DNA of 64,000 nt, from NCBI RefSeq assembly GCF_004010195.1, contig NC_057751.1, forward strand, positions 15,607,677-15,671,676, in the 5' to 3' direction. The position numbers and the translations under genes are program-made. Below the pieces are notes generated by a model. The model was not told where the DNA came from. It was given only the letters and a program-made list of their open reading frames with translations, and did not search any database. The number at the start of each line of letters is the position of its first letter. The first letter of the stretch is position 1. Below are positions 1,293 to 63,823 of the stretch, in pieces. The stretch is from Chiloscyllium plagiosum (lineage: Eukaryota).

Positions 1293-1480
1293 AAAGTGTG
1301 GCGCTGGAAAAGCACAGTGAGCCAGACAGTATCCAAGGAGCAGGACAGTCGACAGTTCGGGAATCAGGATGAAGGGCTTATGCCCAAAACATCAACTCTG
1401 CTGCTCCTCGGATGCTGCCTGACCTGCTGTGCATTTCTGGCGCCACATGTTTTAACTCTGACTCCCCAGCACTTTCTTCT
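1293..1480. mobile_element. Penelope-like short inverted-repeat insertion (family B) with 13-bp TSD
   Basis: AGTAGCTAGGTTG at 1280-1292 and 1481-1493. Internal arms are inverted. Decayed hammerhead: GGATGA-A-GGGC-TTAT-GCCC-AAAACATC. Confidence 0.75.
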
Positions 1481-2485
1481 AGTAGCTAGGTTGCTCAACT
1501 TATGCACTTGTGACTCTCGGTACCTCAAATACTACCTGTGAATCTTGCCAGGTTACTGTGTTAAAATGCTGGTCACAGAAGAGAGGAGCTTTTTAAAAGA
1601 AAGTTATAATAAAATCCGAACTATCTGTTGTGTTGGAGATGACTCCACTTCATACAGACAATCAAGCATCCTGGAAATGATGCATCGCCTTATGTGAATG
1701 CCTCACAATCAGGCCATGGCAATTTTCAACCTAAAACTGCAACCCAACACAGATATCGGCTGCGATAAAGTGTGTAAACAACCAAAGTCTGCCTCAAAAA
1801 CATTAGGTAACCAAACTGTGCATAATGCCAGTAACAAAACAGCAAAAGGCAGGCCTCAATTGAGATTTTCTGAATCAAAGGAACGTTGTTTATCAAACTG
1901 CACTTCATAATTAACTGCGCGCAAAAGATTTTGCATGTTTCCAAAAGACAGGTAGTGTGTTAAAGTTCACTCAGGAAGTCCAAATGGCAACACATACTTT
2001 TACATGGTGCTGTTGTTTGGAGTTATGCTGTTTGCATCACAAGGATAGGGATATTTCCCTGCTCTTAGTGTCTGTCATTGATGTCCTCGGCAGGACTCAA
2101 ATCCACAGCTTCTGCTTCAAGTTAGGGGCAGTAAGCACTGCACCATAAAACCCAACAGATAGGAGAAATTGGTATAAGCGATTCAATTTCTTTCTGATCT
2201 ATATGTGTGAATAGCTTCCTGACTTTTAGATTGTACAACAGATGCCCTTGATCATTAAAAAGAAAAGGAACAGACAACTAACTCTGGCACTCACTGCAGT
2301 CTTAAAATTTGAAAACATTTTGTTAAAATGATCAACAAAGAAAATAAAAGTTGGAGCAGAGTATGGAACAAGCAGAGGATGAGTGAGCTTGAGGAGGAGT
2401 AGGTGAAGAGTGGGAGGAAGAACAGAGTCGATGGTGGATTATTTGTGAGCACAAACGATGGAGCTGACTGCAGATTTTAACAGGC

Positions 2486-2607
2486 GAAAGTGAGGACTGC
2501 CGATGCAGGAGATTAGAGCCGAGGGTGTGGTACTGGAGAAGGGTAGCAGGTCAGGCAGCATCCGAGGAGCAGGAGAATCGATGTTTCAGGCAAAAGCCCT
2601 TCATCAG
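2486..2607 (-). mobile_element. Penelope-like terminal fragment (family B) with ~16-bp TSD
   Basis: GCAGATTTTAACAGGC (2470-2485) and GCAGATTTTGACAGGC (2608-2623). One boundary falls right at the hammerhead CUGAUGA. Confidence 0.75.
2580..2607 (-). ncRNA. Near-intact minimal hammerhead core
   Basis: Minus strand reads CUGAUGA-A-GGGC-UUUU-GCCU-GAA-ACAU-C. ACAU looks like CpG-decayed ACGU (compare GAAACGTC at 55410-55417). Confidence 0.5.
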
Positions 2608-3245
2608 GCAGATTTTGACAGGCCACAATCTCTCCAATACAGACAATCTGCATCAAAATGAAGACGTGCTAAACAGGATGGCAGGGTCCCTGAGGGGCAG
2701 GCAGATGAACAGAAGCTGCTGAAATATAAAGCACAGAGCACAGCAAGTTTGGTGGGAGAAAGAATGGCAAGATTCTTGAAACAACTAGAGATTAGAAGAA
2801 CACAGGCATTGAGTGTGAAGAGGATAGAGTGCAGAAAAGGAAATCACCAGGACACCTCACTTACGATATGATGAAAATGCTCAAAACCTCCAGGAGTGCA
2901 CATAAACTTTGAGGACATGACCAAGAAGGTTGATGAGGGCAGAGCAGTGGATGTTATCTACATGGACGTTAGCAAGGCCTTTGACAAGTTCTAATGGTAA
3001 GTTGGTTAGTAAAGTTAGATGACATGGCATTCAGGTGAAAGCTCGCTGATTGGATCCAAAATTGGCTTAATGGTAGAAAACAGAGGGTAATGATAGCGGG
3101 CTGTTATTTGAACCGGAGGCCTGTGACCAGCACTGTTCCACAGAGGTTGGTGCTGTATCCACTGTTGTTTGTCATTTATAGAAAAGGTTTGGATGAGAAA
3201 ATAAGAAGCATGGTTACTAAGTTTGTGGATGACACCAAAATTGTT

Positions 3246-3369
3246 TGGAGATGCCAGTGTTGGACTGGGGTGTACAAAGTTAAAAATCACACAACACCAG
3301 GTTATAGTCCAACAGGTTTAATTGGAAGCACTAGCTTTCGGAGTGTCGCTCCTTCATCAGGTGGCAGTG
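3246..3369 (-). mobile_element. Penelope-like terminal fragment (family A) inserted into a CR1 RT fragment
   Basis: Interrupts the FVDDTKI...DSE region of the LINE. Flanked by ATTGTT (3240-3245 and 3370-3375). Homologous to 58005-58213. Confidence 0.7.
3329..3363 (-). ncRNA. Minimal type I hammerhead ribozyme motif, intact core
   Basis: Minus strand reads CAC-CUGAUGA-A-GGAG-CGACA-CUCC-GAA-AGCU-A-GUG. Helix I is CAC/GUG, helix II is GGAG/CUCC, and palindromic AGCU replaces helix III. Confidence 0.7.
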
Positions 3370-60998: not shown

Positions 60999-61330
60999 CT
61001 TCCCGGCAGGCTGGGCGGGCTCGCCTTGACACCCCGCCCTCCTCTCGGGGAGGCGGCGGGGAGGGGGGGGGTGGCCTGGCGGTAAGGAACAACCCGACTC
61101 GCTTCGTCAACCAATCCGCGACCCCCGCCGCTGACGGATGGCCGCTGCCGCCCAATTGCAGGGCCGCGGCAGCCGACGGACAGCTTCGACCGCCCCGTCT
61201 GCGTTGACCGACGGGCGGACCATCCAATCCAGACGCGAGTCGCTTGACTGACTGGCAGCGGGCTTGGCCACTCAGCGAGCCGCCTTTTCCATCCTGGCCA
61301 CTGCTGGTCAGAGAGAGGCGGGGATAGCAG
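59900..61330 (-). promoter_or_regulatory. CpG island / TATA-less promoter of CNNM3 with CCAAT and GC boxes
   Basis: Very GC- and CpG-rich against an AT-rich, CpG-poor background. CCAAT at 61111, 61152 and 61224. GC boxes at 61190-61195 and 61213-61218. Confidence 0.8.
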
Positions 61331-61534
61331 CTCGGTTCAAGGGTGGGTGAGTGTGCAGAGTAAACAACTCAGTGGCTCTTAATAGGGGAAAGGGACCAGG
61401 ATCCTCAACACAAATAAGACACGCCTTCCACCAGACCCCACCCCTTAACATTAAAACAAAAGCTCTATTAGCATAGCATTGTTTTCTTTTAAGGAAAGGC
61501 CCACTGTTAAACATTTTGCAGATGAACAAAGACC

Positions 61535-62720
61535 ATAAGCTATAGGTCACACACTCTTCTGCCCGACCTATCTCTCAGCACCATTCTCCTTCTACCCTTG
61601 ATCCCCCTGCTCAGCCTCTGGCTGAAGAAATTCCCTCTCCCCTCAGTTCTGAAGGGCTTCTCCCACAGGCTAAGCTACTTATGGAAACATCGTCTCCTTG
61701 TCCACTTCATTCAGGCCTCTCGCTATTCTGTATATTTCCATCAGCTCCTCCAACATGCTTCTAAACTCCATTGAGTCCAGACCCAAAGTCCTCATAGAAC
61801 ATGACCGTCATTTCCAGGATCACTCTTGTTAACCATCTCTGGGCCCTATCTAAGGCCAGCACCTCCTTCCTGCGATACAAGGCCTAAAACCACTCACAAT
61901 GTTCCGAATGTAGTCTGACCAAAGCCTTATACAGCCTCAGCCCTGCACTCCTGCTTTTATTTTCTCGCTTTCTTGAAAACAAATGTTAATTCTGCACTTC
62001 TAAACTATGAACTGAACAGATATGTAACTAGAAGGAAATCTGGAACTCGCACTCCCAAGTTCCTTTGTGCTTCACATTTCTGGAGCCTTTCCCTATTGAG
62101 AAATTAGGCAATGTCTCTTCTTCCTTCCAAACTGCATAACCTCATAATTTCCCACATTGCCCTCCATCTGCCACTTTTTCTGCCCACTCTCCTCACCTGT
62201 CCAAGTCCTTCTGCAGCTTCTCTGCTTCCTCAACACTACCTGGCCTTCTACAAGCCTCGCAACAATGCCCTCCATTCTTTCATGTGAATCATTAACATAG
62301 AACATGAATAGTTGTGGTCCCAACACTCCACTAGTTCCCAGCCTCTATTCTGAACAAGATACCTTTATGCCCATTCTCTGCCTTCTGCCATTCAGCTAAT
62401 CAATCATCTGTCCCAGTACCTTACCCCACCACTATGGGTTCTCAGTCAGCAGCTTAATGCTGACTCCACCTTATTTTACCATACACTTAGCAATCTCACC
62501 CTTAAGGGACTCTAAAATCTTACTCTCAGGGTAACTGGTTGATAATTTCTGATCTTCTGCCTCTGTTACGTTAGTCATTTGCTCGTCCTCTGGTACCTCC
62601 CCTGATTTCAGTGATTCCTGAAAGATCACCACCAAGACCTCCACAATCTCCTTAGCTGCCACCTTCAGAATCCTGCAGTTTGGTCCAACTGATTTATCCA
62701 TCTTTAGGCCTTTCAGTTTT
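61535..62720 (-). mobile_element. Decayed CR1-type LINE upstream of CNNM3
   Basis: LGPQLFMFYVND (ORF 62093-62326) and LVVIFQESLKSGEVPED (ORF 62471-62809). Confidence 0.75.
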
Positions 62721-63382
62721 GTCAGCACTTTACAGGATTGAATAAAAAGTTGGAATAACCATTGGAGAAACGCCTGATTCACTGATGGAAGGTTGCTGTG
62801 CTGACCCATTCTTGCCTATTCCAGCCTCACTACCATGAGGTTTACTCTAAACTGCCTTCATATGGTCGAGCTAACCACTTAGATGAAGGGCAATTAAGGA
62901 CAAGCAACAAATTATTGGTCGTGCAAATGACATCCACAACCTCGGAAAGTTTTTTTTTTACAAAAATACCTATTACCCAGCCTGTGGAACATGATGGCAG
63001 ATTAATGATCTGCTGAGTGACAGGAAATAGGAGTCAGATTCATGGGCAGGGAAGGTGTCTTCTATAGGTGGGTGTTATGGTCTCCAATAATTATAACTTT
63101 AAGCCACATGGGCTCTAGGCTAATAATTTTTTAATGTTGTCATCCAATTGAGAATGGGACCAAAATAAACTGCAGCACAGATGCAGACCATTTGGCCTGT
63201 TTATGCCAGTGTTGTTCCCCATACAAGGGTCCAGCTGTTTTTCTTGATAAAGACAAAATAGAAGCTCGAGTAGGCCATTCAGCCCATTGCACTTATTCCA
63301 CCATTCATTGTGATCATGACTGATCCTTTCCCTTCTCTCCCCTACCTTAAAATACCTTGAGTGACGAGAAATCTGTTTTTTT

Positions 63383-63823
63383 GGTTGTGGTTCTGTTTGC
63401 CGAGCTGGAAATTTGTGTTGCAGACGTCGCGTCCCCTGTCTAGGTGACATCATCAGTGCTTGGGAGCCTCCTGTGAAGCGCTTCTGTGTTGTTTCCTCCG
63501 GCATTTATAGTGGTTTGTCTCTGCTGCTTCCAGTTGTCAGTTCCAGCTGTCCGCTGCAATGGCCGGTATATTTGTGTCCAGGTCGATGTGTTTGTTGATA
63601 GAATCTGTGGATGCAGCGGACAGCTGGAACTGACAACTGGAAGTGGCAGAGACAAACCACTATAAATGCCGGAGGAAACATCACAGAAGCGCTTCACAGG
63701 AGGCTCCCAAGCACTGAGGATGTCACCTAGACAGGGGACGAAACGTCTGCAACACAAATTCCCAGCTCGGCGAACAGAACCACAACAACGAGCACCCGAG
63801 CTAAAAATCTTCTCAGACTTTGG
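63383..63823. mobile_element. Penelope-like element (family C): 175-bp inverted repeats around a probable remnant of the ORF C-terminus, 12-bp TSD
   Basis: TSD ATCTGTTTTTTT at 63371-63382 and 63824-63835. Arms 63384-63558 and 63612-63786 differ at ~8 positions. The spacer reads STDSINKHIDLD/IYRPLQ on minus, with one frameshift. Confidence 0.8.
63711..63750 (+). ncRNA. Minimal type I hammerhead ribozyme motif, intact core
   Basis: GCA-CUGAGGA-U-GUC-A-CCU-AGAC-AGG-G-GAC-GAA-ACGU-C-UGC. Helix I is GCA/UGC, helix II is GUC/GAC plus CCU/AGG, the palindrome is ACGU, and the cleavage triplet is GUC. Confidence 0.75.

Follow-up and report, generated by a model that had tools for sequence, protein, structure and literature searches.

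Known hammerhead-bearing retroelements

Minimal hammerhead ribozymes (min-HHRs) of animal genomes have been described mostly as single motifs left by truncated Penelope-like elements (PLEs), along with close opposite-strand pairs, several families per genome, and weak cleavage confined to dimers (Cervera & De la Pena, 2014, PMC4209133). Short insertions that likewise carry mostly single motifs, with close opposite-strand pairs and several families, are found in a 64,000-nt stretch of the Chiloscyllium plagiosum genome (NC_057751.1, positions 15,607,677 to 15,671,676, forward strand; hereafter the window), where we assign them to the pseudo-long terminal repeats (pLTRs) of three PLE families, A, B, and C. 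Their motifs share with the published min-HHRs the core boxes, an extra nucleotide separating position 9 from 10.1, the G10.1-C11.1 pair, a palindrome at 15.2-16.2, and the absence of helix III, and differ from them in a helix I of just 2–4 bp. Published counts are about 4,000 motifs in coelacanth and about 9,000 in Xenopus, as compared with about 190,000 extrapolated here, though the descriptors differ; the one supplement file of that study that was searched contains no chondrichthyan term (PMC4209133).

Family C, known here from sequence alone, resembles PAc of Anolis carolinensis in having an open reading frame (ORF) that starts within the hammerhead, two classes of 3′ end about 35 nt apart (at the tail), no Zn-finger linker, and a tandem pLTR-ORF-pLTR arrangement (Frangieh et al., 2024, PMC11167929). 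In vitro, the Anolis Poseidon protein nicks either target strand, copying starts at two internal sites, some 35 nt from each other and close to the pLTR-ORF junction, and product length tracks the template's 5′ end (Frangieh et al., PMC11167929); the accessible portion of that account describes no clustering of genomic 5′ ends at the transcription start. Families A and B instead resemble the endonuclease-bearing (EN+) Neptune PLEs, which encode reverse transcriptase (RT), a CX2-5CxxC-type linker, and, at the C terminus, a GIY-YIG domain, carry a hammerhead in the pLTR, and insert with an inverted 5′-truncated arm, a tail at one end, and target-site duplications (TSDs) (PMC8557442, PMC3846280). 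Inverted arms, a 30–40 bp tail, and TSDs are documented for PLEs in PMC8557442, PMC3846280, and PMC8969392. Unlike the Neptune units in the consulted parts of these sources, about half of the A and B pieces are pLTR-only with a sharp 5′ limit, and the B pLTR holds a poly(A) signal that is used in RNA.

Non-LTR retrozymes are, like the inserts described here, PLE-derived and protein-less, with a type I hammerhead and dispersed monomers, but they need tandem arrays with at least two intact hammerheads, whereas all seven inserts listed for the window are solos or head-to-head pairs (bioRxiv 10.64898/2026.07.22.740005). That preprint covers one chondrichthyan, and in PMC8455134, in the part available, Penelope is no more than listed as occurring in whale shark. 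Both the motif class and the anatomy of the insertions are already known; what is new is a set of members with large copy number and one testable mechanistic oddity, a pile-up of 5′ ends at the motif edge. Neither a shark-specific description nor such a pile-up was found in the freely accessible papers, Repbase and Dfam lying outside this scope.

Linkage of the inserts to autonomous elements

Our reading, to which we would assign a probability of roughly one half, is that the inserts are pLTR-only pieces of three autonomous PLE families, likely pasted by the elements' own enzymes, and that the A and B copies are short likely through run-off of RT at the transcription start. That all three families are pLTR ends of autonomous elements encoding RT and GIY-YIG appears, from the linked ORFs, very close to certain. 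An earlier note, made from the sequence of the window, had listed seven inserts; all are present at those positions and sort into the three families, with 1293, 2486, 55358, and 58881 belonging to A, 3246 and 58005 to B, and 63383 to C. That note had also proposed looking for linked RT/GIY-YIG ORFs, and all three families are joined to them: walking upstream from copies of A, B, and C reached the end of a GIY-YIG-type ORF and then RT in 3/3 families, with the hammerhead motif of each family at a fixed distance downstream of the GIY-YIG ORF. In the reverse test, loci selected by an EN match alone had a family-matching hammerhead end downstream in 27/30 cases for C (at the same offset), 26/30 for A, and 23/30 for B; one locus per set is the query's own, and three of the seven B misses are contig ends. 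RVT_1 matches were found in the natural ORFs of A, B, and C, and for the B and C proteins the atlas neighbours carry HTH_animal, GIY-YIG, and RVT_1 at 0.96–0.97; PDB sequence searches with the B and C proteins gave no matches. Within the window itself, the family C insert keeps the final 43 codons of the RT and GIY-YIG ORF, with 84% identity over 43 aa to the protein of locus L167.

A full pLTR-ORF-pLTR unit of C was recovered (L259/L305; repeat spacing 2,488 bp), its ORF now frameshifted. In these tandem copies an ATG within the hammerhead core, which is as in the window motif at 63711..63750, opens the next ORF. The B pLTR runs into the ORF in L275 and L297, with the ORF ATG at the tail end, and partial tandems of the form pLTR-ORF-pLTR were found for B in L275/L303 and L297/L304, both with N gaps. 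A Cys (Zn-finger-like) linker lies between RT and EN in L097 (B) and, in a shifted frame, in L042 (A), and is missing in L167 (C); such a linker is present in Neptune and Nematis and absent from Poseidon (PMC8557442). Judged by the linker motif alone, A and B would be Neptune-type and C Poseidon-type.

Conservation and decay of the hammerhead

A strict descriptor (CTGANGA, 0–1 extra nt, helix II of at least 3 bp, GAA, a palindromic 4-mer, and H) matched the window only twice, at 3360 (−) and 63714 (+), and 100 shuffled windows yielded one match in total. The CUGANGA and GAAA core, extra nucleotide, G10.1-C11.1 pair, palindrome, and NUH cut site identify the motif as the minimal type I hammerhead of PLE pLTRs, as the earlier note had proposed; it is intact in 2/7 inserts, the remaining five being decayed or without part of the core. 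Its description of one motif shared by the families, intact or decayed, stands insofar as the core is constant across families, while the term "ribozyme-bearing" overstates the case, only 2/7 inserts and 37 motifs among 152 pieces sampled genome-wide being intact.

Core and helices covary across families A, B, and C, in agreement with the pairing conservation that had been put forward as a check. In an anchored motif table, built on matching copies of A (148), B (91), and C (94), the core is constant between families, and both helices (I and II) vary yet stay paired, as do the palindrome, the extra nucleotide, and H17. Changes are compensatory in that five of six tested helix I and II pairs vary on both sides, and the covariation score is 0.64 as compared with 0.23 for shuffled and 0.28 for the best slid alignments, with rows picked as intact, related rows inflating the score, and three B rows misaligned. 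Differences between subfamilies are located at N7, loop II, H17, and the flanks, and decay within copies at CpGs, including G12. In A and B, G12 lies within a CpG (C11.1-G12), and the palindromes of A and C hold another; identity at motif CpG sites is 75–87% versus about 95% elsewhere (families A and B). With CpGs at G12 and in the palindrome, CpG decay preferentially breaks the motif after insertion. This pattern would fit selection on master elements followed by neutral decay of their copies.

Searches with Rfam at gathering thresholds gave no matches in the window, and energy folds of monomer and dimer did not recover the hammerhead fold, such folding being uninformative for a minimal motif. 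Neither the solo copies nor the head-to-head pairs have a tandem same-strand partner for dimer cleavage, which is reportedly the subject of work by Lunse et al. (RNA Biol, as cited in PMC6765202). Given this lack of a partner and the presumed neutral decay, nearly all short copies would be silent as ribozymes.

Density and anatomy of the insertions

The density of about one insert per 9 kb given for the window in the earlier note is real, and density is still higher genome-wide. Seventy-four stretches at preset round coordinates (703,208 non-N bases of the 3.56-Gb genome) contain 152 pieces that together make up 110 insertions (74 of A, 23 of B, and 13 of C), or one per 6.4 kb (bootstrap 5.5–7.6 kb), and bases matching A, B, or C make up 5.4% of the sample. 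All 37 strict motifs in the sample lie within A, B, or C pieces, and ten shuffles gave 0–2. Extrapolation suggests about 0.55 million insertions and about 0.19 million intact motifs in the genome.

The TSDs of 6–16 bp ascribed to six of the seven window inserts are likewise present (Table 1), the insert at 55358 being without one. Empty sites in other copies of the host repeat, which we take to be CR1-like, bear out the 6-bp duplication at 3246 (8/8 sites listed); the 11-bp duplication at 58881 is borne out by the one empty site found, and the comparison at 55358 indicates a target loss of about 7 bp (7/7 sites listed). Across the sample, a TSD of at least 8 bp accompanies 46/94 insertions versus 0–6 in mismatched-flank controls, 16 of the 110 insertions having been dropped for N, edge, or length. 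Head-to-head inverted pairs, a feature absent from the earlier note, account for 5/7 window inserts and 42/110 sampled insertions, and 37 of these 42 pair a tailed arm with a short one. Among A and B pieces, about half are pLTR-only and have a sharp 5′ limit.

Pile-up of 5′ ends and origin of the short copies

On a scale that sets C3 of the hammerhead at 0, the 5′ ends of sampled pieces fall at −13..+10 in 47/100 A (three of 103 pieces dropped) and 18/34 B; the 47 nt upstream (−60..−14) hold 1 A and 4 B ends, and the 24 nt downstream 14 A and 3 B. A larger set that includes bystander copies and overlaps the first placed 64/137 A and 39/82 B ends in the same interval, with duplicates removed by their last 30 bases, such that young B and C are undercounted and the C row was left unused. 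Among young C pieces the corresponding figure is 4/41 (Fisher p = 3e-6 against A and B together). Long copies of A carry an initiator-like A at −4 (58/72), and long copies of B a TATA at −38/−40 (53/68) and an initiator-like A at −8 (58/68); in both families this A lies 30–32 nt past a conserved TATA-like box. The D. virilis Penelope also starts transcription within the pLTR, but from a TATA-less promoter (PMC2377424).

RNA run X21, a poly(A) single-cell library perhaps from another species, places 801 poly(A) ends on B, 363 of them at +57 and 438 at +60, closely following a hexamer (+38/+40) that 61/68 long B copies possess. Both sites precede the two 3′ end positions of insertions, which lie at about +87 and about +121. 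Poly(A)-tailed X21 reads end at L303:5592-5595; a second run, X22, gave no matching reads. Coverage by X21 extends over 30/30 bins of the full C element with a sense excess; the sense strand is A-rich and internal priming by oligo-dT could explain this, so the coverage is not counted as proof of autonomous transcription. A separate observation on the B pLTR is that a 28-nt piece of it (+50..+79) has been expanded to a tandem array at L280:2578-3215, a minisatellite that derives from a PLE end and lacks the hammerhead.

We propose, at about evenly balanced confidence for this step, that RT starts in the 5′ pLTR of the mRNA and runs off where transcription begins, shortly before the hammerhead. 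That start, at −4 in A and −8 in B, would be marked by the TATA-like box together with the initiator-like A. Two copying start sites would yield the two 3′ end classes, as well as the long and short arms of inverted pairs, that are seen among the copies. A B mRNA ending at +57/+60 would leave copying start sites in the 5′ pLTR alone and give products of about 90–130 nt. Because the B poly(A) ends precede both 3′ end positions and the 5′ ends lie at the initiator-like A, run-off copying of the mRNA leader is favoured. Short products without the TATA-like box would then decay neutrally, nearly all of them silent as ribozymes, with the hammerhead maintained on the masters.

The same PLE origin could also give short copies as ordinary 5′-truncated products of the 3′ pLTR, with RT stalling, jumping, or folding back past the hammerhead helices, aided by microhomology; we regard this as unlikely, though far from negligible. 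Truncation at the 5′ end and inverted arms are standard in PLEs (PMC8557442, PMC8969392), the peak overlaps the 5′ strand of helix I, and many junctions join the inverted arm at the pile-up spot. C also lacks a pile-up at its predicted start site. However, C shares the fold, with a longer helix II, and yet shows no pile-up at the hammerhead; a structural stall would be expected on the 3′ side of the structure; the upstream edge of the pile-up coincides with the initiator-like A separately in A (−4) and in B (−8/−9); and the B poly(A) sites lie before both 3′ end positions.

Several observations weigh against run-off copying of the leader. The two-site start mechanism is known from a Poseidon element only, and the Pfam GIY-YIG matches fall under the curated cut-off (E 0.0018 and 0.053), the domain being missed or barely matched. 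No full-length A with a 5′ pLTR was found among 32 RT-selected loci. C has a TATA at −53 (85/117) and an initiator-like A at −18 (95/117), equally good as in A and B, but no pile-up at this predicted start, with 1/41 young pieces beginning at −20. No cap-derived extra G is seen at the 5′ junctions (in A, G occupies 38/143 bases before the start), the pile-up is spread across about 20 nt, and some four of the A starts belong to long copies from diverged subfamilies. A canonical poly(A) hexamer is missing in 67/72 A copies. Finally, besides the doubt over its species, X21 gives no 5′-end information, its poly(A) reads may stem from one or a few host loci, and it shows no pile-up of RNA starts or ends, at low power.

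The earlier note had further suggested that some inserts may be mobilised as non-autonomous units. Such self-propagating units, SINE- or retrozyme-like (SINE, short interspersed element), would derive from short masters and be moved in trans by PLE enzymes. We consider this quite unlikely. Short copies of fixed size occur in very large numbers, PLE-derived non-autonomous elements (bioRxiv 10.64898/2026.07.22.740005; Chlamys derivatives, PMC8557442) and trans mobilisation (PMC3846280) are in print, and short copies are slightly nearer one another (medians 0.957 vs 0.943 in A and 0.983 vs 0.969 in B). The ratio of short to EN-linked copies varies by subfamily (A1 38:4, A3 6:22), these ratios being biased since EN-linked copies came from targeted searches. 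On the other side, short copies and ORF-linked ones occur together in every A and B subfamily: EN-linked copies are present in each of the five A subfamilies that bear a name, and four classes of B variant are also common to both kinds. For 106/125 short copies of A and 68/71 of B, the closest EN-linked copy comes within 3 points of the closest short one. The short copies lack an upstream TATA-like box, 0/7 inserts are tandem, and inversion junctions vary from copy to copy. As short copies share subfamilies with ORF-linked copies, a separate non-autonomous family is unnecessary, and the suggestion, though not supported here, keeps a small probability.

That hammerhead self-cleavage, in dimers or assisted by protein, sets the ends of the copied RNA appears very improbable. 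There is a small excess of A starts at +27..+34, near the predicted cut at +28 (8/100; 12/137 in the larger set), and the PAc hammerhead does cleave with protein (PMC11167929); but the main pile-up lies about 30 nt upstream of the cut, both 3′ end classes lie 45–90 nt downstream, B has no clear excess near the cut (4/82), no RNA end pile-up is seen (at low power), and PAc insertion in vitro is unaffected by hammerhead mutants (PMC11167929). The sharp 5′ limit in A and B, absent in C, argues against the ribozyme cut as what sets most of the inserted ends.

Features of the window

Coordinates are collected in Table 1. At least three further remnants, missing from the earlier list, are present in the window; two of them are copies of an older, A-related, hammerhead-bearing family, D, which has its own helix I and helix II sequences and a further copy at L145:477-516 (−). 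A degenerate array of about 60-nt units interrupts or flanks one D copy. The dispersed family of about 300 bp is presumably tRNA-headed and SINE-like, and we take many further window fragments to be CR1-like long interspersed elements (LINEs).

A GC-rich open frame in the window matches CNNM (E 2.9e-17) and Ig_CNNM4_N and is probably, judging by these matches, exon 1 of a gene for a cyclin M metal transporter; further exons were not located. If so, the inserts below 59.6 kb would be intronic and the insert at 63383 would lie upstream of the gene.

Table 1. Inserts, hammerhead motifs, and neighbouring features, in window coordinates; arm starts are relative to C3 of the hammerhead
Position (strand)	Feature	Arms or motif	TSD
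1293..1480	Family A head-to-head pair	Minus arm with short 3′ end at about 1293-1367, tailed plus arm at 1368-1480; hammerhead broken (C3-U4 gone, G12 altered, palindrome decayed)	1280-1292 / 1481-1493, 13 bp
2486..2607 (−)	Family A solo pLTR copy with tail	Start about −1 of core; core boxes intact, palindrome CpG decayed, helix I largely gone	2470-2485 / 2608-2623, 16 bp, 1 mismatch
3246..3369 (−)	Family B solo pLTR copy with tail, nested within another repeat	Start −9	3240-3245 / 3370-3375, 6 bp
3329..3363 (−)	Family B intact minimal type I hammerhead	C3 at 3360, extra A, helix II 3352-3340, GAA, AGCU, A17 at 3332, helix I 3 bp; cut predicted from hammerhead numbering between 3332 and 3331	
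55358..55483	Family A head-to-head pair	Both arms begin within core, hence CUGA absent	None
58005..58213	Family B head-to-head pair	Minus arm short, plus arm with tail; neither core intact	57993-58004 / 58214-58225, 12 bp
58876..59100	Older family A head-to-head pair (58881 in the earlier note)	Arm starts about 0 / −1; both cores decayed	58865-58875 / 59101-59111, 11 bp, 1 mismatch
63383..63823	Family C head-to-head pair	Minus arm 63384-63613 (−156..+72), GAA box broken; plus arm 63614-63823, from −100, with tail	63371-63382 / 63824-63835, 12 bp
63571-63443	RT and GIY-YIG ORF end in family C insert		
63711..63750 (+)	Family C intact minimal type I hammerhead	C3 at 63714, extra U, helix II 63722-63739, GAA, ACGU, C17 at 63747, helix I 3 bp	
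911..1023 (+)	Decayed copy of family D		
46617..46696 (+)	Second copy of family D	Only 3′ half of motif left	
About 57700..57835 (+)	Family A remnant	Upstream part fused to tail, hammerhead deleted	
46530-47490	Degenerate array of about 60-nt units		
5952-6255, 17306-17595, 20232-20557, 26741-27069, 33530-33851	Dispersed family of about 300 bp		
59628-61106 (−)	Open frame, probable cyclin M first exon		

Implications

The copy number extrapolated for these families is far above the counts found in print, and the main value of the finding lies in its scale and testability. A sharp 5′ limit in the Neptune-type families A and B and none in the Poseidon-type family C, within one genome, offers a natural contrast on where PLE copying starts and ends and on the role of the hammerhead. 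As B copies can supply a working poly(A) site, host transcripts could be cut short or terminated by the insertions of this family, some 100,000 in number. A broader suggestion, which we offer tentatively and hold to be somewhat less probable than the run-off step itself, is that most Neptune-type insertions are cDNA of the mRNA 5′ leader rather than truncated 3′ ends, the poly(A) site of the pLTR removing the 3′ copying starts, so that RT would engage the 5′ pLTR and run off where transcription starts. If true, the genome would hold several hundred thousand fossil products of 5′-RACE (rapid amplification of cDNA ends) that map PLE promoters, and this would explain both the need of tandem read-through copies for ORF mobility and the abundance of minimal hammerheads in animal genomes.

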